A stretch of 32,000 bases of DNA from Vibrio vulnificus CMCP6 (GTDB lineage: Bacteria > Pseudomonadota > Gammaproteobacteria > Enterobacterales > Vibrionaceae): positions 690,001 to 722,000 of the forward strand of contig NC_004460.2 of assembly GCF_000039765.1 (NCBI RefSeq). The letters are read 5' to 3'. The position numbers and the translations under genes were made by a program. This document shows positions 14,314 through 25,854 of this stretch, in pieces; position 1 is the stretch's first letter, and each line of letters opens with the position of its first letter. The notes under the pieces were generated by a model, which saw nothing but the letters and a program-made list of their open reading frames with translations, was not told where the DNA came from and did no database searches.

Positions 14314-14419
14314 AACTGACGATGATGTACCGGTTAGATCTGCGCCAGATGAGCTGAACTACAAGTTAAGAGACTTCTCGCATTCATAGTTATTCATGAA
14401 AGACTAATTTAGCAAGATA

Positions 14420-14847
14420 TTGACAAATACACGTAACCTGAGGCGACCAGCAAAGGGGCTTGTGTTACACAGCGATAGGGGCTCCCAGTATCCGAGCAGA
14501 CAATATCGCAAACAACTACAGGGTTATGGCATGTGGGCGAGCATTGGAGATGTCGGTGCTTGCTGGGATAATGCCGTGGTCGAGCGGTTCTTCGGAAGTT
14601 TAAAGCACGACTGGTTGTTTAAAGTGCACCAACCAGAGAGCATATGAAGGAGGATGTCTCAGCCTACATGAGGTATTACAACCTCGAAAAGCTGCATTCG
14701 GCGAACAATGACATGAAGCCAATTAATTATGAAGAGTTTTTAGCAGAAATAGACAAATGCCCACAGGCGTCTATAAAACGTTTTTATCCACCAACGTTTC
14801 AGATCTTCCTGAACCCTACTAAATGTGACTGCCAAACTTCATGTTGA
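14420..14847 (+). mobile_element. IS3-family transposase (OrfB) remnant, 5'-truncated and frameshifted
   Basis: HSDRGSQY (second DDE Asp) and CWDNAVVERFFGSLKHD (DDE Glu region) lie in one frame. The tail AYMRYYNLEKLHSANNDMKPINYEEF lies in another frame, with the shift near 14640. The N-terminal catalytic region and OrfA are absent. Confidence 0.8.
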
Positions 14848-14872: not shown

Positions 14873-15469
14873 ATGAGAAAGTTTTCTTCTGGAAAATGCA
14901 GTGGCATAAAAAGGCCATTTAAGCTTGAAGAAATCTGGCGGATCAGAACTAGGCTGGAGATTGAAAACGATTTAATGCAGCTCGCGCTACTGAACTTAGC
15001 TATAGATAGCAAGTTAAGAGCGAGTGATTTGCTAAAGCTACACGTTTACGATGTGTCTTCGCAAGGAGTTATCTATGACAGGGTTCAGTGCATCCAGCAA
15101 AAAACGGGCACCGATGTCCACTATGAGATAACACCAAGAACACAGCAAAGTATTAGCCGATGGATTTTTGCAGCATCCCTAGAGGCAAGCAGTTTTCTAT
15201 TTCCGAGTAGCAGACGCTCTGGGCAACCCATCAGCTACTCATTCTATCGTTCAATTATCAGGAGCTGGGCTGTAAAGCTTGGATTGAATGCTGACTATTA
15301 CGGTACTCACTCCATGCGTCGCACCAAAGCCACTTTAATCTATGCCAGAACGAAAAACATCAGGGCTGTACAGATCTTACTTGGACACTCGAAGCTTGAT
15401 AACACAATTCGATACCTCGGCGTTGAGCTAGAAGACGCTCTGAGGTTGTCTGAGAAAACAGACTGCTGA
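14873..15469 (+). CDS. Short tyrosine recombinase (catalytic domain only, FimB/FimE-sized)
   Basis: 198 aa with a GAGGAGG RBS. Catalytic signature: R in SKLRASDLL, HSMRRTKAT (H-x-x-R), LLGHSKLDNTIRYL (H..Y). There is no N-terminal core-binding domain. Confidence 0.85.
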   Translation: MRKFSSGKCSGIKRPFKLEEIWRIRTRLEIENDLMQLALLNLAIDSKLRASDLLKLHVYDVSSQGVIYDRVQCIQQKTGTDVHYEITPRTQQSISRWIFAASLEASSFLFPSSRRSGQPISYSFYRSIIRSWAVKLGLNADYYGTHSMRRTKATLIYARTKNIRAVQILLGHSKLDNTIRYLGVELEDALRLSEKTDC

Positions 15470-15484
15470 GAGATAGGAGCTGTT

Positions 15485-15510
15485 ACAGGCTTTTCTCCTG
15501 AAAAGCCTGT
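15485..15510 (+). terminator. Perfect 11-bp stem hairpin after the recombinase gene
   Basis: ACAGGCTTTTC-tcct-GAAAAGCCTGT, 16 nt after the stop. No clean T-run follows. Confidence 0.55.
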
Positions 15511-15794
15511 GCCCCTATATGTTTTAGATAGACTTGTCATTAGCAGGAAGCAAATAGAGGAACGAACTACTTTTCCTAATCGAAATGTATCGACAAATCC
15601 AAGGCCTTACTAGGTATCTATTGGCTGGGCAATGACCGAGGGATTAACTCATGATGTGTTTAGCTGAGTTGGTTTCGCTATCGCCATCTATGTGAACATT
15701 GAAACGGCGAAAACGATGTTATTTATGAATGAAGAGCGACATCAAACCCATTATCCGCTTAGGGCAATTCCGGCATTGGCGCTCATGACATTGC

Positions 15795-15816
15795 AAAAAG
15801 GACACATTGCGTGTCC
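15795..15816 (-). terminator. Rho-independent terminator of the NTase-SLATT operon
   Basis: On the minus strand: GGACAC-gcaat-GTGTCC followed by TTTTT, 10 nt after the SLATT stop codon. Confidence 0.6.
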
Positions 15817-15825
15817 CCCATGTTG

Positions 15826-16536
15826 TTATTTAGTCGCTTCACTATCCGGATTTGGTTCTGGTGTGGCATCTTTGACTAAAGCTGATTGTGATTCCGGTGC
15901 GGGTTGTTCTTGCCAGCATCCCACACAAGGCTCAGAAACCCATGCCCAAGTCTTGCTTGTGATACAAAATGGGTTTAGCCATAGCAAGGCAGCTACTATG
16001 GCACCAATGACCACAGCACGCAGGCTTAGAGGAACTTTGTCATTAAAGCCGAGAGCAAGTTCAGTGCTCATCCAGTCGCTATTGTGCTCAGAAAAGACTT
16101 TGTAATGGGCATACCATGAGGACAGCAACACAGGAGACATGGTGTCAACAGCTCGATGATCAGCCTGCACTTGAGCTAGGTCAGCTCTTGCTTTGGCAAC
16201 AGAGTTGGTATCTTGTATGTCAACTTCGCAGTAAATGCGCTCTAGTTTCTTGCTGATATCAGTCAAGCTAATCCCTGTCGCTTCATACTGCTCTTTCTGA
16301 AGCTCTCTTGGCTTAAGGACGATCCCGATAATACCGATAATAAGCAACAGAGCCGCTAAAGCCTTGCTGTTGAACTCTGCAAATGCCAAACCAAGCACAC
16401 CAAAAGACAGCGAAACTACGCTAATAATCGTAGGAAGCTTTTCGCAGATATCGAATGACGCAAAATGAAGCTTGGCGCTGTAGAGTACGTTGTAATACTC
16501 TCTAGCCACTTGCTTCTTAATCGTCTGTTCCGTCAT
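15826..16536 (-). CDS. SLATT-like membrane protein (predicted pore/effector partner of the NTase)
   Basis: 236 aa. N-terminal helix (AREYYNVLYSAKLHF), two closely spaced TM helices (about aa 34-52 and 58-74), a helical linker, a third TM (about 168-189) and a Cys/Trp/Pro-rich tail. AGGA RBS in the 12-nt gap after the NTase stop. Confidence 0.65.
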   Translation of the reverse strand: MTEQTIKKQVAREYYNVLYSAKLHFASFDICEKLPTIISVVSLSFGVLGLAFAEFNSKALAALLLIIGIIGIVLKPRELQKEQYEATGISLTDISKKLERIYCEVDIQDTNSVAKARADLAQVQADHRAVDTMSPVLLSSWYAHYKVFSEHNSDWMSTELALGFNDKVPLSLRAVVIGAIVAALLWLNPFCITSKTWAWVSEPCVGCWQEQPAPESQSALVKDATPEPNPDSEATK

Positions 16537-16548
16537 AAACTATTGTTC

Positions 16549-17814
16549 CTATTCGATTGGGACGGTGATTTCATGTCGTGCTATCACCGTATTGTTGCGG
16601 ATAGCGTAACACTCAACCGTATGATCGCCATAGAAATTAGCGGTCTCGATACGAGTTTTGCTACCGTCATCATCCATGATTTCACCACGGTGATTCCTCA
16701 GCTTGTCAGCCTCATCCCCACGGTTACGCACCTTCCACTTCACCTCATAATCTTCTCCGATGTCGGTTTGTTTTACAAAGAAGTGCAGTTTCCGTTGATG
16801 CTGAATTCGCTCCCCAACAAATTTTATTGATGACAACATTCTGGTCATCAGGTCGCTTTTAACCTCACAATCAATGATAATTTGGTTGGTAATATCCAGA
16901 TCGAACAGTTCCTCGATAAACTGCTCATTAACCGCCGCCGCTTGTTTGGCTTCACGATTAGGAAACTTAGTGCCAAAAATAGCCTTATATCGCTGGTTGC
17001 ACTTATCCTCATAGCCGCTCTCTCTGGCTTCTATGGCTTCAATGGCATTTTCCAGCGCTATCTGCGCATCAGCTTGGAATGCTTTCTTTATACCGACTTG
17101 GGAGTTACTGCCAAATGCGTAGTAGTACGTTTTCTCTGGCTCTTTGGTGAGGTATTGGAAAAAATCTCGCACCATCTTGTCAAAGCTACCGAAACTAGCT
17201 TTGTCGTAATCGGTGTTATCTTTGAAGAAGTTGTAGCAGAGAGTATCAATCAGAAAGCCACTCATCTGAATATCGTTTCTGGCCTTCCAAGCACGAATCA
17301 TTTTCGCAAGCTTACGTAGGTTGTCTTTACGCTCGGTGTTCAACTCCCTAAATGCTTGTAATTCAGCACGAGTGTTACACTTGCGCCATAAGCCGCCGTT
17401 ATATGTGTCAGGATATTTGAAAACTCCCTGCCATTCGAATACGGGCACCACCTCAAAGGTAAAGTCCTGCATCTCAACTACCACCACGTTGCGGTCTTTT
17501 TTTACCTTACTTGTCTTGTATGTCTTCTTGATAGCATCTTTGGCGTGGTCTAGTGCCTTTGATGGGTCTTTGCGGTAGGTAGGCCAAGTGCTAGGTGGGA
17601 GTATGTAGAGCATATCAAGGTCAGAAATACCTTGGATTCCAGAGTAACGACCATACGATCCAGCCTGAAGACTGTAACTTGTCTTGTCGTTTTCCAAACC
17701 TCGAAACTGTTCATTGAGGTTCTTCGTGATGCTTTCATAGCGACTCGAAATTTTGTTCTTGTTCTTGATCTTCAAGTTGTCCAAAAACACACTGAAATCC
17801 CGTCTTACCGTCAT
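16549..17814 (-). CDS. SMODS/CD-NTase-like nucleotidyltransferase with C-terminal AGS-C-like domain
   Basis: 421 aa with a GAGGG RBS. Pol-beta NTase signature G52-S53 .. D65-L-D67 .. E121 (FEVVPVF). A helical middle region is followed by a beta-rich C-terminal domain (EDYEVKWKVRNRGDEA..HRGEI..FYGDHTVECYAI). Confidence 0.75.
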   Translation of the reverse strand: MTVRRDFSVFLDNLKIKNKNKISSRYESITKNLNEQFRGLENDKTSYSLQAGSYGRYSGIQGISDLDMLYILPPSTWPTYRKDPSKALDHAKDAIKKTYKTSKVKKDRNVVVVEMQDFTFEVVPVFEWQGVFKYPDTYNGGLWRKCNTRAELQAFRELNTERKDNLRKLAKMIRAWKARNDIQMSGFLIDTLCYNFFKDNTDYDKASFGSFDKMVRDFFQYLTKEPEKTYYYAFGSNSQVGIKKAFQADAQIALENAIEAIEARESGYEDKCNQRYKAIFGTKFPNREAKQAAAVNEQFIEELFDLDITNQIIIDCEVKSDLMTRMLSSIKFVGERIQHQRKLHFFVKQTDIGEDYEVKWKVRNRGDEADKLRNHRGEIMDDDGSKTRIETANFYGDHTVECYAIRNNTVIARHEITVPIE

Positions 17815-17838
17815 ATGTCACCCTCATGTAGTTAAGTC

Positions 17839-17874
17839 CATGTATTACATGGGGGCATTGTTTGGTAAAACAAT
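17839..17874. promoter_or_regulatory. Two adjacent palindromes just upstream of the NTase start codon
   Basis: CATGTA-T-TACATG (17839-17851) and ATTGTTT-ggta-AAACAAT (17857-17874), lying 25-60 bp upstream of the ATG at 17814 on the minus strand. Confidence 0.35.
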
Positions 17875-18108
17875 CCTCCCTATCAATATACTGTGTCTGT
17901 GAAGACTGGTAAACACTACATGTGCGATGCGAATAATAAGAGATACCACTATTTGTTGAGTTGTTTATCAATGTAACTTTGCGGTGATTAGAATTCTTTG
18001 GGTAAATAAGAAACGCTTGTCTTTGTTCCTGCTTGTCCCGCCGATACACATGAGTTACAACTTTGCTACACCAAAGGCAATCCACGATTAACTAATTTAG
18101 AAGATGCT

Positions 18109-18164
18109 GTAACTCAGTATTATCCAGAACTTTCACAGTTGGCACTTCGTAACTCAGAAGTGCC
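18109..18164. promoter_or_regulatory. Direct repeat GTAACTCAG x2 (40-bp spacing), the second copy in the loop of an 8-bp hairpin
   Basis: GTAACTCAG occurs at 18109-18117 and 18149-18157. The hairpin is GGCACTTC-gtaactca-GAAGTGCC at 18141-18164. Lies in the divergent intergenic region. Confidence 0.3.
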
Positions 18165-18209
18165 CCAAAATGCGCTGCCTTACTTCTGCTCCTCGAGTTT
18201 ACAAACAGC

Positions 18210-18235
18210 CATTTGACTTAATTTTTCTTATCCGA
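18210..18235 (+). repeat. Junction motif copy D
   Basis: CATTTGACTTAATTTTTCTTATCCGA. TTTTTCTTATC (18222-18232) is identical to 22252-22262, with flanking ACAAA..ATTTGA and ..AAGG also shared. Confidence 0.45.
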
Positions 18236-18268
18236 ACAAAGGGCATTTCGTCAGAGCTTTCTAAGCTA

Positions 18269-18290
18269 AATATGATATTGTAATCATATT
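18269..18290. promoter_or_regulatory. 8-bp inverted repeat, operator-like, upstream of the SIR2 gene
   Basis: AATATGAT-attgta-ATCATATT, about 115 bp upstream of the ATG at 18404. Confidence 0.3.
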
Positions 18291-18403
18291 AGTGTTCTTA
18301 ATGCCGCTATTACCAATAGGAGCACTGACACCGCTATTGATGCGATTAATTATCGCTTAAGTCACAACACCTAAAAGTTAGAACTTTAAACACAAAAGGA
18401 AAC

Positions 18404-21400
18404 ATGATGCGATTCCTCGAAAATGGACCTTCAATACCTGATGAACTCTTATTAGCCAGAGACCAAGGTCGGGTGGTATTTTTTTGTGGTGCAGGTGTTT
18501 CAAGAGCAAAAGCGGGATTTGCCGACTTTTTTGGGCTAGCTTCATCTGTAACATCTGAGCTTGGTGTAGAAACCAGCAGCCCTGCCTTGAAGCTTATAGA
18601 GGCTGCTAAAGAAATAACCGCTAGTACTGGCGTGGAAGGGGTAGTTTCGGCTGATAGAATATTTGGTTTGCTGGAGCGAGAGTTCTTAACGAGAGATATA
18701 TATAAATCAGTAGCTAAGGCTCTCACACCTGAGGGAGAAGTTGACCTAAGCGCACATCAAACGATGCTTAAACTAGCTACAACGAACGATGGTATCGTAC
18801 GTTTGGTAACAACTAACTTTGATCGCTTATTTGATCTTTGCAAACCAGATATAAATACCTTTATGCCCCCAAGACTGCCTGATCTTAATCATCCAATTGA
18901 TTTTAATGGCACGGTATACCTTCATGGCAAAGTAAACGAGGATGGTACAGGTGCTGCAAGCAACGGCTTTGTCCTCTCAAGTTCTGAATTTGGTGATGCT
19001 TACTTGGCTAATGGTTGGGCTACCTCATTTGTCAAAGGGATATTGGAAAAATATGTCGTAGTTTTTGTCGGTTATTCTGCGGACGATCCGCCAATTCAGT
19101 ATTTGTTAGAAGCACTCAATAAAAGCTCAAGCCATCTCAACGATATATACGCATTTCAATCTGGTGATGAAAGTTACGCTAGCTCAAAGTGGCACCATAA
19201 AGGGGTAAAAGCGATTGCGTATGACGATACAAATGGACATATCGCGCTTTGGAACACTTTGGAATCTTGGGCCGAGCGGGCTTCTGATCCGGATGCATGG
19301 TATCAAGGAATAATCACAAAAGCTGGAATGGGGCCTCACCTCTTACTGCCCTTTGAACGCGGTCAGATTGCACATATTGTTTCTACAACCGAAGGAGCCA
19401 AAAAGTTTGCTAATAGTGAAATACTAGCTCCTGCCACTTGGCTTCATGTGTTTGATCCTGAATTGAGATATGAAACTCCTCGTAAAAATTTATCCGGTGC
19501 AGAAAACCTAACTGAGATGGTAGACCCATTTCACTTTTACTCTCTGGATTCGGATCATACACCACAGCATGTTGACCCTAATGACTTTTATAACAAACGT
19601 GAAGTTCCCACAGGAGCATGGGATGCTTTTGAGTTTAACTCACAAGACATTAAAGGAACACAAGACCAACGTTCTATAAGATTTAGAGGGGATGATTCCA
19701 GTTCCCCTCAGTTTTCAACCCTGCCTCAAAGGCTCAACGCATTAACATATTGGTTGAGCAGAGTGGCGGAACAGCCAGAAGTAATCTGGTGGGTTACGAA
19801 GCAGCAATGTCTTCATCCTTGGGTTCAGTTTGTACTTAAGTCAGAATGTGAGCGTCGTTCTAAAGATATGGATAGTACACTCAATGAGGCATGGAGCTAT
19901 GTTTTGGATGGCTTTGAACAAACTGATAAAGGAGGACACCGCGATTGGTTTACTCTGGAAAGAGCAATAAAGAATAATGGCTGGTGTCCCAGAAAATTAC
20001 GGCAATTTGAAAAGGTAACGAAACCATTCATCAAGGTCTCGCCGCCTTTCCGCACCCCGAATGAGATCAACTGGGAGCAGATTAGTTTAAAAGACTTAAT
20101 TCATTTAGATGTCCATTACTCAGAACTACCAAGAAGGCTAGAAATTCCTGATGAGTGGATAATTCGTACCGTTGAAGTCCTGAGACGTAATCTAGAGCTT
20201 GCTGTTGAACTAGAAAAAGAAATAGGAGGATATGGCCTGAGCCTGAGTTGTTCGTTAACACCCGAGAAGAAAACAGAGGATTCGTATAGTCGAACTTACG
20301 GTCTATCTGCATGGGTATTGCTGTTTGTTTCTTACTTAGAGAAATTAGTTTTGATTGACCTTGATGCTGCTCGGAAGGAGCTTTCAAGGTGGCCATGCGA
20401 TGACAGTACTATCTTTGCAAGGTTAAAGATTTGGGCGTTAGGGAAAACCAATCTTGTGCCTAATGAAAGTATTATTACTACTTTAAATCAACTTTCAGAC
20501 GAAGCATTTTGGGATAGTTATCATGCTAGAGACTTGCTTCTAGCTTTCGTAGCTAGATGGAAAGAACTCGACCAATGTCGCCGTTCCACAATAGAAAATA
20601 GAATATTGCAAGGACCTAAACTTTGGAAAACCAAAGATGAAAGTAGATTTAAGGAACAGAAAGCGAGAAATATTCTGGATAGAGTAACTTGGCTTAAACA
20701 AAATGGTTGTGAGTTAACAATAGCAACGGATAAGTTAGTTGATAGGCTAAGAGATGATGCGCCGGAATGGAAGCCTGAGCATGCAAAAGATGCAGCGTGC
20801 TCTTTTGAAGTTCGCGGCGGTATTGTAACCAAAAATACAGACTATTCTTTGTTAGCAGATGAACCAATAGACTCAATCCTTGAAAGAGCATATGAATTAT
20901 CTGGTAGACAAGCTGATTTTTTGATTGATGAAGACCCATTTCTAGGTTTATCACAAGAAAAACCGATTCGAGCTTTCAGCGCTTTAACTTGTTCGGCAAA
21001 AAAGGGAAACATTGTGGACTGGGCTTGGGATACTTTCCTTTATGCTGAAGCCCGTAAGAATGATAAACCCCGATTTATGGTGTTAATTGCAGAGCGTTTG
21101 TCTGGTTTTACCAGTAATGACTTGGCAAAAATACTTCGTTCAGTATCAAGCTGGTTTGAGCAGTCTACTAGCGTACTTGCTGGTAATTATTATGCTACAT
21201 ACTATAAATTAGCGTTTAAATTAGTTGATGCAATGTCGATACAACCTGCTAACGGTGAATCTTCAATAATACGAGGTAGTAAAGCTCCTGATTGGGCCAT
21301 GGAGTCAATAAACTCACCAACTGGAAACTTAACCAGTGCCATACTGAAATCACAGTATGGCCGTACTTTTGAATCTGGAGAGTGCTTCACTGGGGATTTA

Positions 21401-22216
21401 TTGTTATTACTCAACCAATTATTAGCTTTACCTAATGATTTACATCGTTACGCAATGGTTATACTTAGCCGCAGTTTAAGTTGGTGCTTTTGGGTTGATC
21501 CTGACTGGACTCAACGTAACTTGCTTTCTACCTTAAACTCTTCTTCCAGAGAAGATCGTCAGGCATTTTGGGCTGGTGTTTTATGGGGAGAAGTTCGCGG
21601 GAAAGAACTATTCACCATTTTGAAGCCAAGTATTCTGGAATTGGCATATTCAGGAGAAGTTGAAACCCGAGGTCATCAGGATGCTATTGTGGGATTAATT
21701 TTCTCAGCTTGGAAAATTAAGGATGAGGATAAAAGGTGGGTATCTGATCTTGAATTAAAAGAAGTATTAATTAAAGCAAGTGATGGCTTTAGGTGTGGAA
21801 TATTATGGCAAGCTAGGCATGGAGAGAGTGAAGACAAAGAGCATTGGTTACTAGCATTCAGAGAACTTATCTCAAATGTTTGGCCAAAACAGCTTGCTGC
21901 TAAATCCCCCGCTGTATCAGAACGCCTTTGTGATATCGCATTTTGGTCGGAAGAACACTTCCCTGAAATTGTAAACCTAATCACTCCGTTCTTAACGAAA
22001 TTCGAACGTGCTAACCACATCTACCTGAATGATGACAACGTACTTAAAAAATATCCTAATGATCTATTGTTACTCCTGAACATTGTATTACCTGATGATG
22101 TTAACAAATGGCCTTACGGCATTGGGGACTATTTAGAGCAAATGATAGAAGCTAATAGTGAGTTAGGTGATGATGAACGCTTTATCGAACTCAAAAGAAA
22201 ATGGGATGCAAGGTGA
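18404..22216 (+). CDS. Large SIR2-like-domain protein (DSR-like architecture: N-terminal NADase-type SIR2 plus about 1000-aa unassigned C-terminal region)
   Basis: 1270 aa with an AAGGA RBS; the ATG at 18407 is equally possible. SIR2-like motifs: VVFFCGAGVS (aa 24-33), LVTTNFD (134-140), VYLHGK (171-176), VVFVGYSADDP (219-229). The rest looks helical, is rich in W and L, and has no motif I recognise. Confidence 0.8.
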   Translation: MMRFLENGPSIPDELLLARDQGRVVFFCGAGVSRAKAGFADFFGLASSVTSELGVETSSPALKLIEAAKEITASTGVEGVVSADRIFGLLEREFLTRDIYKSVAKALTPEGEVDLSAHQTMLKLATTNDGIVRLVTTNFDRLFDLCKPDINTFMPPRLPDLNHPIDFNGTVYLHGKVNEDGTGAASNGFVLSSSEFGDAYLANGWATSFVKGILEKYVVVFVGYSADDPPIQYLLEALNKSSSHLNDIYAFQSGDESYASSKWHHKGVKAIAYDDTNGHIALWNTLESWAERASDPDAWYQGIITKAGMGPHLLLPFERGQIAHIVSTTEGAKKFANSEILAPATWLHVFDPELRYETPRKNLSGAENLTEMVDPFHFYSLDSDHTPQHVDPNDFYNKREVPTGAWDAFEFNSQDIKGTQDQRSIRFRGDDSSSPQFSTLPQRLNALTYWLSRVAEQPEVIWWVTKQQCLHPWVQFVLKSECERRSKDMDSTLNEAWSYVLDGFEQTDKGGHRDWFTLERAIKNNGWCPRKLRQFEKVTKPFIKVSPPFRTPNEINWEQISLKDLIHLDVHYSELPRRLEIPDEWIIRTVEVLRRNLELAVELEKEIGGYGLSLSCSLTPEKKTEDSYSRTYGLSAWVLLFVSYLEKLVLIDLDAARKELSRWPCDDSTIFARLKIWALGKTNLVPNESIITTLNQLSDEAFWDSYHARDLLLAFVARWKELDQCRRSTIENRILQGPKLWKTKDESRFKEQKARNILDRVTWLKQNGCELTIATDKLVDRLRDDAPEWKPEHAKDAACSFEVRGGIVTKNTDYSLLADEPIDSILERAYELSGRQADFLIDEDPFLGLSQEKPIRAFSALTCSAKKGNIVDWAWDTFLYAEARKNDKPRFMVLIAERLSGFTSNDLAKILRSVSSWFEQSTSVLAGNYYATYYKLAFKLVDAMSIQPANGESSIIRGSKAPDWAMESINSPTGNLTSAILKSQYGRTFESGECFTGDLLLLLNQLLALPNDLHRYAMVILSRSLSWCFWVDPDWTQRNLLSTLNSSSREDRQAFWAGVLWGEVRGKELFTILKPSILELAYSGEVETRGHQDAIVGLIFSAWKIKDEDKRWVSDLELKEVLIKASDGFRCGILWQARHGESEDKEHWLLAFRELISNVWPKQLAAKSPAVSERLCDIAFWSEEHFPEIVNLITPFLTKFERANHIYLNDDNVLKKYPNDLLLLLNIVLPDDVNKWPYGIGDYLEQMIEANSELGDDERFIELKRKWDAR

Positions 22217-22231
22217 GCCAATTTTAACAAA

Positions 22232-22265
22232 TATTTGAGATTTTAAGTTACTTTTTCTTATCTGA
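22232..22265 (+). repeat. Junction motif copy E (longest; shares segments with all other copies)
   Basis: TATTTGAGATTTTAAGTTACTTTTTCTTATCTGA, lying between the SIR2 stop (22216) and its terminator. Confidence 0.45.
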
Positions 22266-22271
22266 GTAAGG

Positions 22272-22303
22272 CGCGTTAGAGCGATATACCTAACGCGTTT
22301 TTG
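22272..22303 (+). terminator. Rho-independent terminator of the SIR2 gene
   Basis: CGCGTTAG-agcgatatac-CTAACGCG followed by TTTTTG. Confidence 0.75.
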
Positions 22304-22335
22304 TCCAGAACCTTCATAGACTGAATTTTACCCTT

Positions 22336-22370
22336 GGGGCTTTCTAGCTCGAAAGCCCCCCTTTCTTTGT
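22336..22370 (+). terminator. Second hairpin terminator upstream of traD
   Basis: GGGGCTTTC-tagctc-GAAAGCCCC followed by the T-rich CCTTTCTTTGTT. Confidence 0.6.
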
Positions 22371-22451
22371 TAGTGCTTTACTCATTCATATCTTATTTAC
22401 CTGAATTTAAACTACTCCACCTTACTCTCTTTTTACTAAAAAGGAGCATTT

Positions 22452-24545
22452 ATGCACACGCCTACACGCAAGAAAAGCAACCACTTTACTCGTGGAGGAC
22501 AAGTGACCTTTCACGCCATTACCATGTTCTTTCAAGTGAACAATAAACTTGTGAAATTCATTGGTTGGGGCGTAGTTGCGCTCACTTTGTTACTGACGCA
22601 CCTAAATTCCCCTCCTAATGCTTTGTGGGGCGAATTTTATTACTTCCGTAATGTTCTATATGCAAAGCTAGGGAAGCCTCTCGATAGCCCTGTCACCACC
22701 ATTTGGGAAGGTGAGCGCTACACCGACACCCTCGCCTATCAACTGCAAAACTCTGTTCTCCTCGATATCCACGCCACCATTTGGCACAACGTTCAAATCT
22801 ACTTTCTGATTGCTTTAGTGATAGGCATGGCCATCTTCATGATCGCCTTACGCTTTTTTAAAGAGCAAGGCGAAAAACAGAGTGAAGATATTCATATCCG
22901 AGGCTTTCGCTTAGCCCCGCCAGAAGCCATCACCAAAAAGCTCAAAGCACGAGCAAAAGCCAAGAAGAAACGAGGCTATGGGGATGGGTCAATATCGAGT
23001 TTTAAAATCGATGGTCATGCGCTTTTAAAGCAGTACTTCGAAGTTCAGCACTTACTCATTGATGGCACCACAGGGGCGGGAAAATCCATCATGATCCGCA
23101 AACTGGTGCGTTGGATACGCGCTCAGGGCGATAAAGCCATCATCTACGATAAGGGATGCACCTTTACTAGTAAATTCTACAACCCAGCGACCGACGTTCT
23201 CCTCAACCCCTTTGATAAACGCTGCGCTAACTGGGATGTATGGAGTGATGCCATCGAGGCGCCGGATTTTGAAAACATGGCCGCCGCATTAATCCCTCAA
23301 CATGGTGAAGGCGACCCGTTCTGGGTCGATTCTGCCAGAACAATCTTTTCCTCTACCGCTTATCGCATGAGTCAAGATAACAAACCTTGCACCACTGAGC
23401 GATTACTCAGTTTGATCTTAACTTCTGAGCTGGAAACACTTGGCAACTTCTTAGAAGGTACAGAGTCCGCTTCTCTTGTCTCAACGGACATTAAGAAAAC
23501 CGCGATTTCCATCAAATCGGTATTGGCCACTTACATCAAAAGCCTGCGCTTTTTGGATGGTCTTAATCACCAAGAGCGCCCTGATAAGCTCAGACAAAAG
23601 TTTTCAATCACAAACTGGGTTCAAGACGATAACCAAAAAGGCTTTTTGTTTCTCTCCAGTAATGCGCAGCAACATGCTTCACTAAGACCACTGATATCGA
23701 TGTGGTTAGCCATTGCTTCCAATGCCATTTTAGGACTGAAAGAAGACGAAGAACGTCGTATCTGGGTCATTATGGATGAAATGCCAAGCTTGCATAAGTT
23801 GCCTGAGCTGGGCTCTATCATTGCCGAAGTTCGTAAGTTTGGGGGATGCTATCTGATTGGTATCCAGTCGTATGCGCAGCTCGTCAAAACCTATGGTAAG
23901 AATGCCGCTGAAGAGATGTTTGATTTACTTAACACACGCTTCTTCTTTCGAGCCCCGTCTGAGCCTATGGCGCGTATCTCTGCTAAAGACTTGGGTGAAC
24001 AAGAAGTCGATGTCTCAAAAGAAAATGTCTCTTACGGCGCAAATACCTTGCGTGACGGTGTCTCTCTTGGCCACCAAACCATTACACGCCCTGTCGTATC
24101 TGCTAGTGAAATCCAAGCCTTAGATGACCTGCAATGTTATCTGCGCTCTCCTGGCATTGATCTTATCACTAGGCTCGACCTAGAATTCGACAAAATGAGT
24201 GACATTTGTCCAGCGTTTGATAAACGCACCATTGTACTTTCATCCGCAATGAGCAAAGTATATGAACAGGCAATTTACCATGAATGTGTTGCGCCTGGCT
24301 TATACCTGAACGAAGAAGATCGTCATAAGCTAACGGATGCTCAAGAGACGAACTTTGAAAACGAAGAGCAGATGAAAGCAGAAACCGTTCACATTCAACA
24401 AGCGATAAAAAGCGAGACAGTGAGCGAGCTGGTCAACCAATATCCACAACTCAAACAGGAGCAAGCCTATCAAGAGGAAGCTCAGCGCAATATTGAAGAA
24501 GCCGCCATTTCTCAAGAAGCCGAAATAGGAGAAGTTTACGACTAG
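22452..24545 (+). CDS. traD: Type IV coupling protein TraD
   Basis: 697 aa with an AAGGAG RBS. Has N-terminal TM helices, Walker A DGTTGAGKS, and long collinear blocks with F TraD (IIYDKGCTF..LNPFDKRCANWDVW..DPFW..KTAISIKSVLATY..RKFGGCYLIGIQSYAQL..). The C-terminal tail is acidic and Q-rich. Confidence 0.95.
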   Translation: MHTPTRKKSNHFTRGGQVTFHAITMFFQVNNKLVKFIGWGVVALTLLLTHLNSPPNALWGEFYYFRNVLYAKLGKPLDSPVTTIWEGERYTDTLAYQLQNSVLLDIHATIWHNVQIYFLIALVIGMAIFMIALRFFKEQGEKQSEDIHIRGFRLAPPEAITKKLKARAKAKKKRGYGDGSISSFKIDGHALLKQYFEVQHLLIDGTTGAGKSIMIRKLVRWIRAQGDKAIIYDKGCTFTSKFYNPATDVLLNPFDKRCANWDVWSDAIEAPDFENMAAALIPQHGEGDPFWVDSARTIFSSTAYRMSQDNKPCTTERLLSLILTSELETLGNFLEGTESASLVSTDIKKTAISIKSVLATYIKSLRFLDGLNHQERPDKLRQKFSITNWVQDDNQKGFLFLSSNAQQHASLRPLISMWLAIASNAILGLKEDEERRIWVIMDEMPSLHKLPELGSIIAEVRKFGGCYLIGIQSYAQLVKTYGKNAAEEMFDLLNTRFFFRAPSEPMARISAKDLGEQEVDVSKENVSYGANTLRDGVSLGHQTITRPVVSASEIQALDDLQCYLRSPGIDLITRLDLEFDKMSDICPAFDKRTIVLSSAMSKVYEQAIYHECVAPGLYLNEEDRHKLTDAQETNFENEEQMKAETVHIQQAIKSETVSELVNQYPQLKQEQAYQEEAQRNIEEAAISQEAEIGEVYD

Positions 24546-24759: not shown

Positions 24760-25503
24760 ATGACGACAAGACATATCTTCGGAATGTGTTTACTGGTTAT
24801 CGTCTCGGGAGCCTGTGTGGCAGAACCACTCGGCAATACCAGCATTACCTCTTTCAACACCGCCAAGAAGATCGTGCAACAGCATGTGTACACCACCACA
24901 GAGCTGCGTAAAACGCTCTATTCCGATGCCACATTTAACGCGAAAAAAGACGTCTCGCTCCCTGGTGGGTTTAAGACAACTCAATACAAAAATCGATTGA
25001 AACGCTGGGAAGCCGAGCACGTTGTACCCGCTGAAAACTTTGGCCAAACCTTTATTGAATAGCACGAAGGACACGCCCAATGCGTCAATAGGAAAGCAAA
25101 AGCCTTTAAAGGCCGTAAGTGGGCAGAAAAGGTCAATACCGAGTAGCATCTGATGCCATCGGTTCTGTATAACCTCTACCCTGCAATTGGCAGTGTCAAT
25201 GCGGCAAGGCAAAACTACAACTTCACATTGCTGCCCCATGCAAGGTCCAGCTTTGGTCAATGCGATGTGCCTATTGATGGTAGGAAAGTGCAGCCGCCTG
25301 AGCAGGCACGTGGCGCGATTGCTCGCACATACTTATATTTTGAAGCGCTCTACCCTCGATACTCGATGAGTAAAGCGCAAAGGCAGTTAATGCAAGCTTG
25401 GGACAAACAATACCCAACAACGAAAGTGGAGTGTCAGCGAGCTCAACGAATAAAACAACAACAAGGCAATGCCAATCCTATCCTTGCCGAACGTTGTAAT
25501 TAA
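24760..25503 (+). pseudogene. Endonuclease I (EndA/Vvn/Dns family) pseudogene
   Basis: A single frame carries signal peptide, ..RWEAEHVVPAENFG.., ..LYNLYPAIGSVNAARQNYNF.. and ..ARGAIARTYLYF..MQAWDKQYP... It is interrupted by two in-frame TAG codons (25060-25062, 25144-25146). Several conserved Cys positions are substituted (FYCGC becomes LYSDA). Confidence 0.8.
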
Positions 25504-25567
25504 CCTTCTCCCCTTAAACAATCACCAGAGTAGCCATCCCTCTGCATTTTGTTACAATGCTCCTGGG

Positions 25568-25593
25568 CGCTTAGACATACCCATGTCGAAGCG
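25568..25593 (+). promoter_or_regulatory. Leader hairpin upstream of the hok-like gene, downstream of a candidate extended -10 promoter
   Basis: CGCTTAGACAT-accc-ATGTCGAAGCG (11-bp stem, one mismatch). TGTTACAAT (extended -10) lies at about 25549-25557. Confidence 0.4.
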
Positions 25594-25704
25594 TTAGCCA
25601 AAACATGGATATGAAAAAGCCCCGAATGAACTATAAATTCAAACGAGGCCTTTACCATGTATAAGCAACTTGATAATAGCCTCTTACTTCATAGGAGGCA
25701 AGTT

Positions 25705-25854
25705 ATGCCTAAAAAAACGGCTCTCGCAGCCTTAGTCGTGGTCTGCATCACGGCGGTCATTCTCACTGCACTTTATACCGGTTCGCTCTGCGATATCCGA
25801 TACAAAGATCAGCAAAATGACTTAAGCATTAAACTTGCCTACGAAGTAAGATAA
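25705..25854 (+). CDS. hok: Hok/Gef-family type I toxin
   Basis: 49 aa, MPKKTALAALVVVCITAVILTALYTGSLCDIRYKDQQNDLSIKLAYEVR. It has a single TM helix followed by SLC(D/E)IRY..D and ..AYE, as in R1 Hok (..[22 protein letters not shown]..). AGGAGG RBS 6 nt upstream. An in-frame ATG at 25657 would add 16 codons. Confidence 0.85.
   Translation: MPKKTALAALVVVCITAVILTALYTGSLCDIRYKDQQNDLSIKLAYEVR

Follow-up and report, generated by a model that had tools for sequence, protein, structure and literature searches.

The window, a stretch of 32,000 nucleotides of Vibrio vulnificus CMCP6 (contig NC_004460.2, positions 690,001 to 722,000), contains on its + strand an open reading frame (18404..22216) that codes for 1270 amino acids counted from the first ATG and 1269 amino acids counted from the second. 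The deduced protein is identical to AAO07600.1, encoded by VV2_0658 of this strain; elsewhere, the identical protein is found on a single further short contig only, and for the protein P0003 no contig that encodes it is recorded. The reading frame and its length had been given in a preliminary description and were borne out, but the start calls for a small correction. Homologues of VV2_0658 begin with MRF, the gene is called at 1269 amino acids in other assemblies and the predicted ribosome binding site AAGGA (18396-18400, + strand) is separated from the first ATG by just 3 nt. Therefore, the second ATG at position 18407 is probably the true start and is more likely than the first.

The gene, which is dsr1-like as outlined below, is located in an F-type transfer cluster, where it occupies the interval from traG to traD. 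In V. vulnificus CMCP6 and many other strains, this cluster is carried by contigs of the size of chromosome II. Directly upstream, a type I CBASS is encoded (cyclase, E 3e-159; 2TM effector, E 8e-126), and a hok/sok addiction module is nearby. In the sister strain GCA_047044505.1, a Gabija system (GajA, E 1e-247; GajB, E 1e-204) takes the place of the dsr1-like gene with the same breakpoints, a clean natural case of defence-cassette turnover in a chromosomal F-type cluster. The cassette has a size of 4.1 kb and recurs with 97% identity on an unrelated plasmid of V. alfacsensis (plas2, MOBH conjugative), where the shared DNA comprises the gene, ~250 bp upstream and ~95 bp downstream. A 74%-identical homologue is present in V. 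parahaemolyticus in an ordinary, non-conjugative chromosomal context. The neighbours are unrelated in the window, on plas2 and on the V. parahaemolyticus chromosome, as expected of a stand-alone gene, and the distribution of the gene is patchy and horizontally mobile. The gene had been described before as part of a conjugative element rather than of a chromosomal island. The position between traG and traD agrees with the first half of this statement, but the cluster itself resides on chromosome II and offers a swappable defence slot, and the V. parahaemolyticus homologue has no conjugative surroundings; the exclusion of a chromosomal setting was, therefore, not upheld.

The region upstream of the gene (18248..18400, + strand) is promoter-like. 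It has a predicted sigma70-like promoter TCGTCA-17-TATGAT (18248-18276, + strand), whose -10 element is overlapped by the palindrome ATATGATattgtaATCATAT (ATATGAT-N6-ATCATAT, 18270-18289, + strand), followed by the direct repeats CCGCTATT (18304-18311 and 18331-18338, + strand), a second palindrome, GCGATtaattATCGC (18342-18356, + strand), and the AAGGA sequence. V. alfacsensis has this region with 97% conservation, and at the 74%-identical locus of V. parahaemolyticus it is conserved in part. A TGGCAC-N-AGC sequence was considered as a sigma54 promoter but was dismissed by eye since one base is missing from the spacing between GG and GC. Downstream of the gene, a hairpin resembling an intrinsic terminator (GCGCGTTAG / CTAACGCGT, 22271..22303, + strand) with a 9-bp stem and a 10-nt loop precedes a T-run, and a second GC hairpin follows at 22336-22359 (+ strand). 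The first hairpin is also conserved in V. alfacsensis, and in V. parahaemolyticus it can still be recognised. The ribosome binding site, the terminator and the operator-like upstream repeats which had been ascribed to the gene are all present as AAGGA, hairpins with T-run and palindromes; to judge from these predicted signals, the dsr1-like gene is an autonomous cassette with a promoter-like region and a terminator of its own.

The N-terminal effector block (aa 1-366, 18404..19501, + strand) consists of a SIR2_2 NADase fold (aa ~1-295) and a helical extension. It is the portion best conserved with respect to Dsr1, with the best stretch on the NCBIfam Dsr1 model spanning residues 2-366. The SIR2 motif series noted previously was present at exactly the positions given: CGAGVS (28-33), TTNFD (136-140), LHG with H174, and FVGYSADDP (221-229). 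In 50 homologues, G29, G31, S33, T136, T137, N138, F139, D140 and H174 are invariant, and so are G223, Y224, D228 and P229. In the BLASTP alignment to E. coli Dsr1, the catalytic residues N138 and H174 line up with its VTTNFD and YLHG motifs. Pfam SIR2_2 (PF13289) matched aa 134-271 with an E-value of 3.8e-14, and no second Pfam domain, the canonical sirtuin family included, was matched at E<=1 anywhere in the 1270-aa protein. Furthermore, a structural model of the N-terminal domain (pLDDT 79) matched the NADase structures of KomC, DSR2 and ThsA in Foldseek with E-values of ~1e-10. The assignment to the SIR2 family, which had been made from motifs, was thus corroborated by both the Pfam and the Foldseek matches, and catalytic residues and modelled fold indicate an intact SIR2_2 NADase domain.

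The remaining ~900 amino acids (aa 370-1270, 19511..22213, + strand) are predicted to form an alpha-solenoid sensor. An AlphaFold2 model of aa 300-1270 (pLDDT 84) is nearly all alpha-helical, in agreement with the earlier reading as helical repeats, and among the 50 PDB fold matches listed for this region only generic HEAT/ARM solenoids were found. The C-terminal part had also been called unassigned and possibly novel, a reading which was not supported in this form. A profile built from the sensor only aligned in hhalign with the C-terminus of E. coli Dsr1 over 781 columns (probability 99.5%, E 4.8e-23, ~21% identity), the same profile was matched by 3014 representative clusters, and the sensor architecture is constant across thousands of proteins. 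The long tail is, on this homology, the usual sensor of the Dsr1 family and not a new one. Since the sensor identity is only ~21-24%, the trigger specificity of EcDsr1 is not transferable to VV2_0658. Fusions of the sensor to effectors other than SIR2 found no support: among the best 150 sensor matches, eight proteins of atypical length were checked and all eight were fusions to SIR2 or truncated SIR2. The sole non-SIR2 match in tblastn (H84) falls within a 'hypothetical protein' of 225 aa that has IS transposase genes close by; this locus is probably a gene remnant and says nothing on sensor fusions.

The family was assigned with profiles and full-length alignments. The PADLOC models for Dsr1 matched with E-values of 8.1e-93 (PDLC02183, best stretch 2-295) and 2.1e-92 (PDLC04167, best stretch 2-352), and the NCBIfam profile NF041818 (Dsr1) matched with E 2.1e-123 and 413.3 bits. 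BLASTP against E. coli Dsr1 WP_053264524.1 aligned residues 2-1265 with residues 1-1263 (E 7e-66, 24% identity). The close homologues P0012 (56% identity), P0040 and P0112 each covered positions 1-1259 of the 1263 positions of the Dsr1 profile in one stretch, and tblastn gave one-piece alignments with 98-99% coverage to dsr1 genes named by PGAP in Shewanella, Agrobacterium and E. coli. The earlier designation as a DSR1-like single-gene SIR2 NADase is, therefore, backed by sequence comparison. The equivalog cut-off of NF041818 is 1400 bits, and VV2_0658 with its 413.3 bits does not reach it; seven clade members scored 359-468 bits, whereas true Dsr1 proteins used as positive controls scored 1674 bits (the BLASTP reference WP_053264524.1) and 2098 bits. 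From these scores, VV2_0658 appears as a divergent member of the Dsr1 family that belongs to a homologous sister clade rather than being an equivalog. The clade comprises >4700 full-length homologues of constant architecture, which NCBI names only 'SIR2 family protein' and for which 'SIR2 family NAD-dependent protein deacylase' also occurs as a source name. The full-length link to Dsr1 gives this clade of thousands of sequences a testable function and a candidate class of triggers.

The closest known system is EcDsr1 (WP_029488749.1; NF041818; Gao et al. 2020; Lee et al. Nature 2026, PMC13581612). Like EcDsr1, VV2_0658 is a collinear single polypeptide in the range of ~1260-1280 amino acids with a SIR2_2 domain that carries the motifs VTTNFD and YLHG at the N-terminus and a sensor of helical repeats at the C-terminus, but the overall identity is only ~24%, the profile score is 413 instead of 1674-2098 bits and the hosts of the clade are marine (Vibrio, Shewanella, alphaproteobacteria). 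The sensor of EcDsr1 is made of Avs7-type helical repeats and is triggered by the phage major capsid protein (PMC13581612, PMC12803255). Avs7 is a STAND NTPase whose sensor is homologous to that of Dsr1 (PMC13581612), whereas neither a STAND nor another NTPase family was found in VV2_0658 by Pfam search; a relationship of the clade to Avs7 would be transitive, through Dsr1. With DSR1 of Bacillus subtilis, VV2_0658 shares the family name and the single-gene SIR2 architecture. DSR1 depletes NAD+ upon phage infection (Garb et al., bioRxiv 10.1101/2021.12.14.472415), and in B. subtilis this depletion is merely transient and the culture does not collapse (bioRxiv 10.1101/2021.12.14.472415). DSR2 of B. 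subtilis (PDB 8WY8, 8WKN), which senses the phage tail tube protein, likewise combines a SIR2 NADase fold (Foldseek E ~1e-10) with a helical sensor in one protein, but its similarity to VV2_0658 is limited to the SIR2 domain: PADLOC gave no Dsr2 match at E<=1, and the 50 C-terminal fold matches listed were generic solenoids with no DSR2 chain among them. An identity as DSR2 was, therefore, rejected.

The SIR2 effector fold is also common to ThsA (Thoeris) and KomC (Kongming). ThsA and KomC are activated by small-molecule signals, which act via SLOG or partner proteins. Neither a SLOG or TIR domain nor ThsB- or KomA/B-like neighbours were found in the protein or the neighbouring ORFs scanned. 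With only marginal PADLOC matches to ThsA (E 2e-4 over 38 residues), no SLOG/STALD domain and no ThsB TIR partner in the scanned ORFs, VV2_0658 was not regarded as a Thoeris ThsA. SIR2-HerA, SIR2-APAZ/pAgo and Avs5 (SIR2-STAND) were discarded as well, since no HerA, pAgo or STAND was found in the protein or the flanking genes.

We consider it likely that VV2_0658 is a single-gene anti-phage protein of the Dsr1 (defence-associated sirtuin 1) family and belongs to a divergent clade that is sister to the E. coli prototype. By analogy with the homologues described in the literature, the sensor would hold the SIR2 domain inactive in the uninfected cell. Upon infection, a phage structural protein, which is the major capsid protein in the case of EcDsr1, would bind to the bent helical-repeat sensor and thereby activate the hydrolysis of NAD+ into ADP-ribose and nicotinamide; with NAD+ lost, phage replication would come to a halt. 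The outcome could be growth arrest or, as for Bacillus DSR1, only a transient dip in NAD+.

The same family membership and NADase output would also be compatible with a trigger other than the major capsid protein, be it a different phage protein or a plasmid protein. This would fit the 21% identity of the two sensors over 781 columns and the distance of ~1000 bits between the clade and the Dsr1 equivalog, as well as the protection by EcDsr1 against few phages only (PMC13581612, PMC12803255) and, according to PMC13581612, the binding of different folds by related sensors in other families. On the other hand, the capsid protein triggers both Avs7 and Dsr1 despite the distance between them (PMC13581612), which suggests a conserved mode of recognition, and the sensor of VV2_0658 is collinear with that of EcDsr1 over the full length; overall, we regard a different trigger as somewhat unlikely. 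In F plasmids, the interval between traG and traD harbours the exclusion genes traS and traT. The position of the dsr1-like gene in just this interval, the hok/sok addiction module nearby and the second copy of the cassette on the MOBH conjugative plasmid of V. alfacsensis could indicate that the gene serves the mobile element, be it as an addiction module or as a barrier to incoming plasmids that compete with the element or to conjugative DNA. We hold such a role to be very unlikely, given that Gabija, a system of phage defence, can take the same slot, that the V. parahaemolyticus homologue is found outside any conjugative context and that the experimental data on Dsr1 all concern phages. The name 'SIR2 family NAD-dependent protein deacylase' and similar ones in databases would suggest an ordinary deacylase that has a large regulatory domain and is unconnected to defence. 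This is extremely improbable: the domain matched is SIR2_2 (PF13289), a sirtuin family of the defence type, with the canonical sirtuin family absent at E<=1, the nearest structures are those of NADases, namely DSR2, ThsA and KomC, the homology to Dsr1 extends over the full length, and distribution and location are those of a patchy, mobile gene in a defence slot. As CMCP6 is in wide use as a clinical reference strain of V. vulnificus, VV2_0658 and the adjacent CBASS are readily testable as determinants of vibriophage host range, with the Dsr1-type anti-phage function as the favoured reading.

The cassette is bounded by two copies of a repeat of ~125 nt which is dispersed in Vibrio genomes. The left copy (18060..18166, + strand; nhmmer E 1e-17) ends with GGCACTTCgtaactcaGAAGTGCCCC, and the right copy (22238..22361, + strand; nhmmer E 4e-24) includes the terminator hairpin, TGTCCAGAACCTTCA and the hairpin at 22336-22359. 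In comparison with the strain carrying Gabija, the alleles diverge immediately after the left copy and identity resumes at position 22296 in the right copy. It is exactly at breakpoints marked by this repeat that Dsr1, Gabija and an unknown gene of 188 aa replace one another, and arrays of the repeat in the same orientation, with a spacing of 0.7-2.9 kb, are present in several Vibrio chromosomes and plasmids. The repeat had no match in Rfam, and a literature search with its sequence returned nothing relevant. It was rejected as an integron attC site because it folds into three to four short local hairpins instead of one long imperfect hairpin, its ends lack R''/R' (RYYYAAC...GTTRRRY) pairing and the sequence after the breakpoint is unconserved.

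The dsr1-like gene might belong, as a cassette, to an undescribed cassette system of Vibrio that does not use attC and in which site-specific recombination takes the repeat as its substrate, a proposal which we rate as unlikely; alternatively, the repeat merely supplies homology for RecA-mediated exchange. Within the cassette-system proposal, the repeat is possibly acted on by a conserved 198-aa tyrosine recombinase, whose gene is located 2.6 kb upstream of the left copy. The repeat could account for the passage of such modules between chromosomes of Vibrio and unrelated plasmids, and it is a more unusual by-product of the analysis than the Dsr1 member itself. In V. sinensis, a homologue of the 198-aa recombinase directly adjoins a copy of the repeat.

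The open reading frame proposed for 18404-22216 is real and encodes 1270 aa on the plus strand. It begins with tandem ATG codons (18404 and 18407), of which the second is the probable true start, giving a protein of 1269 aa, since homologues have the N-terminus MRF... and the gene calls of other assemblies have this length. A ribosome-binding site, a terminator and upstream repeats had been ascribed to the gene, and a candidate for each was seen: AAGGA is found a short way upstream, the promoter-like region 5' of the gene carries two palindromes and one direct repeat, and a GC-rich 9-bp hairpin with a T-run follows the gene at 22271-22303, with a second hairpin further downstream (22336-22359). 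The G+C content is ~0.40-0.42 across the gene versus 0.46-0.50 across the tra genes.

All four SIR2 motifs were found at the residues named in the preliminary description. Alignment of the protein to 49 homologues showed G29, G31, S33, T136-D140, H174 and most of FVGYSADDP to be invariant, and the NADase catalytic residues are intact. SIR2_2 was the sole Pfam match (aa 134-271, E 3.8e-14); a Pfam scan of the remaining ~1000 aa revealed no domain. The structures of the two parts were compared separately, as had been suggested: the N-terminal model (pLDDT 79) resembled KomC, DSR2 and ThsA in their SIR2 NADase domains (E ~1e-10), and the sensor model matched only generic HEAT/ARM solenoids (karyopherins, PP2A-A, SF3B1) with low TM-scores. 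This sensor model (aa 300-1270, AlphaFold2 with a 50-sequence alignment as input, mean pLDDT 84) was nearly all alpha-helical, in agreement with the earlier impression of helical repeats. A sequence search for a solved structure of a Dsr1 or Avs7 sensor retrieved none.

The protein matched the Dsr1 models of PADLOC (E 8e-93 and 2e-92) and the NCBIfam Dsr1 equivalog model (E 2e-123), the latter with 413 bits, which is far under the curated cut-off of 1400 bits. In the matches to both collections the best-scoring stretch was the N-terminal ~300-366 aa; therefore, the C-terminal region was tested separately for its likeness to Dsr1. Three close homologues, P0012 (56% identity to the Vibrio protein), P0040 and P0112, covered positions 1-1259/1263 of the Dsr1 profile in one stretch. 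A tblastn search against plasmids gave single-piece alignments over 98-99% of the query with 22-25% identity to genes of Shewanella, Agrobacterium and E. coli that are annotated by PGAP as anti-phage defense-associated sirtuin Dsr1. By BLASTP, residues 2-1265 aligned with residues 1-1263 of the E. coli plasmid Dsr1 WP_053264524.1 (E 7e-66), to which the equivalog model itself gives 1674 bits. Finally, a sensor-only profile built from aa 370-1270 of nine clade members was aligned by hhalign to the C-terminal 893 aa of WP_053264524.1 with a probability of 99.5% (E 4.8e-23, 781 columns). These four comparisons identify the long tail as a Dsr1 sensor that has diverged, rather than a domain without assignment.

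The protein is thus placed in the Dsr1 family, as a divergent member: it is homologous to Dsr1, would act in the same way, and fails only the narrow equivalog threshold. Related systems were weighed and rejected. The sensor differs from that of DSR2, the SLOG domain and the ThsB partner of ThsA are absent, no partner gene as in SIR2-HerA or SIR2-pAgo lies beside the gene, and no NTPase domain as in Avs5 or Avs7 was found in the protein. The central idea of a DSR1-like SIR2 NADase held. The suggested novelty of the sensor is largely overtaken by the full-length homology and by an account of the Dsr1 sensor and trigger published in 2026.

The clade is large and its architecture constant. More than 4700 proteins matched the Vibrio protein at E <= 1e-5; among the 120 matches listed nearly all were of 1250-1295 aa with 100% coverage, and their sources were Vibrio, Shewanella, Pseudoalteromonas, Rhizobium, Serratia and Pectobacterium as well as many metagenomes. 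The sensor-only profile found 3014 matches among 1.8 billion cluster representatives (917 at E <= 1e-30), in which the sensor almost always began around residue 370 and the protein was ~1270 aa long. Eight matches of atypical length were inspected: their SIR2_2 domain was either complete or truncated at its N-terminal end, or the N-terminus was too short to hold one.

The dsr1-like gene forms an autonomous unit by itself and lies in a defence context, and its product shows full-length homology to Dsr1. DSR1 depletes NAD+ upon infection, and with Bacillus DSR1 and phage phi29 the depletion was merely transient and without collapse of the culture (10.1101/2021.12.14.472415). The sensor of the E. 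coli prototype EcDsr1 has a bent, bilobed helical-repeat structure and shares homology with that of Avs7, a STAND protein; both are reported to be triggered by a phage major capsid protein (PMC13581612). By homology, the SIR2 domain of the Vibrio protein would most likely be held inactive in the uninfected cell, a phage structural protein would most likely bind to the solenoid and release the SIR2 domain, and the released domain would then, again most likely, hydrolyse NAD+. That a phage capsid protein is the trigger is rated well below even odds, and a trigger other than a capsid protein is considered the main rival, because the sensor is only ~21-24% identical to that of EcDsr1.

The exact protein is AAO07600.1 (VV2_0658) on a 1.84-Mb contig of Vibrio vulnificus CMCP6. 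It belongs to a consecutive accession run with AAO07592, 07593, 07598, 07599 and 07601, which are TraG, a KilA-N protein, a CBASS 2TM effector, a CBASS cyclase and TraD, and these TraG, KilA-N, CBASS and TraD proteins sit on 1.8-2.0-Mb contigs in many strains of V. vulnificus and V. parahaemolyticus. The gene order is traU, trbC, traN, traF, traH, traG, then a 12-kb cargo block (KilA-N gene, MFS transporter gene, transposase remnants, a 198-aa tyrosine recombinase, type I CBASS and the dsr1-like gene), then traD, an endonuclease-I fragment, hok/sok and traI. Since the F-type cluster (traU...traG, traD, traI) is found on chromosome-II-sized contigs (1.8-2.0 Mb) of CMCP6 and many strains, it is an integrated element, not plasmid-borne here, and apparently widespread. 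The claim of a conjugative element was right as to the F-type tra genes, but the contrast with a chromosomal island was not: the cluster has integrated into chromosome II and carries a defence island between traG and traD. The type I CBASS (15826-17814, minus strand) lies directly 5' of the dsr1-like gene and is divergently transcribed; it comprises a 421-aa cyclase with SMODS and AGS_C domains (PADLOC cyclase E 3e-159) and a 236-aa 2TM effector (SLATT_6, E 8e-126). Between traD and traI, an endonuclease I gene appears to be split or truncated (24760-25062 and 25153-25503, +): a 116-aa ORF matches positions 93-231/235 only of the Endonuclease_1 profile and is preceded by a separate 100-aa ORF, an arrangement common to other strains. 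It is followed by a hok/sok-type addiction module at 25565-25715 (+) and 25657-25854 (+), where the Rfam sok antitoxin RNA scored 82 bits (gathering score 59) and is overlapped by a 65-aa ORF; the matching 65-aa gene in other assemblies of the element has a weak HOK_GEF match.

Less expected than the Dsr1 identity was a repeat-bounded swap of defence cassettes. Positions 18151-22310 are the only part in common with V. alfacsensis plas2 (97% identity), a MOBH conjugative plasmid unrelated to the element studied here. The sister V. vulnificus strain GCA_047044505.1 is 99.9% identical over 15001-18171 and 99.7% over 22296-24469, and between these flanks it has a 188-aa ORF and, on the opposite strand, Gabija (GajA E 1e-247, GajB E 1e-204) in place of dsr1; the insert (L033 2454-6347) replaces 18172-22295. 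In a third arrangement, from another strain (L031), the 188-aa ORF cassette is followed by the dsr1 cassette. One breakpoint between the alleles directly follows '...GTGCCCC' in a ~125-nt repeat, and the other falls where the next copy starts. Exchange between repeat copies may be site-specific or may simply be RecA-mediated.

Copies of this junction repeat flank the dsr1-like cassette at 18060-18166 (+, nhmmer E 1e-17) and 22238-22361 (+, E 4e-24), a weak partial copy lies at 14372-14417, and the V. alfacsensis locus L001 has copies at 17639-17763, 21838-21910 and 22962-23032. The 3' part of the repeat (~61 nt) reads TGTCCAAAACCTTCACAGGTTGAATTTTTACCCGTGGCAYTTTCTAGCTCGAAARTGCCCC. In its terminal hairpin, pairing reached 90% over 15 copies, and 4 of 9 pairs showed compensatory changes. 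Fold and end motifs disagree with an integron attC site, which was rejected; neither an Rfam scan nor a literature search for the repeat gave a match. A strict 28-nt pattern of the repeat was present in 24 stretches among species-representative genomes (loci L007-L030), nearly all from Vibrio, on chromosomes and plasmids. Within 8-kb stretches the repeat profile found up to four or five copies, spaced 0.7-2.9 kb, in a single orientation per stretch bar a few short weak matches, and separating small accessory genes of either orientation.

The 198-aa tyrosine recombinase (14873-15469, +) is a candidate for the cassette recombinase. All alleles of the element for which this region was recovered have kept it, and its DNA is 87-96% identical to segments of Pseudoalteromonas and Vibrio plasmids. 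A recombinase beside the repeat was found at one of the 25 loci searched (the 24 repeat-bearing stretches and L001), namely in V. sinensis, where a 66%-identical homologue (L007 651-1223) lies 157 nt downstream of a repeat copy. Just 5' of the recombinase, two short ORFs at 14420-14847 (+) end in ...YMRYYNLEKLHSANNDMKPINYEEF; this was taken for the C-terminus of an IS3-type transposase and points to an IS remnant.
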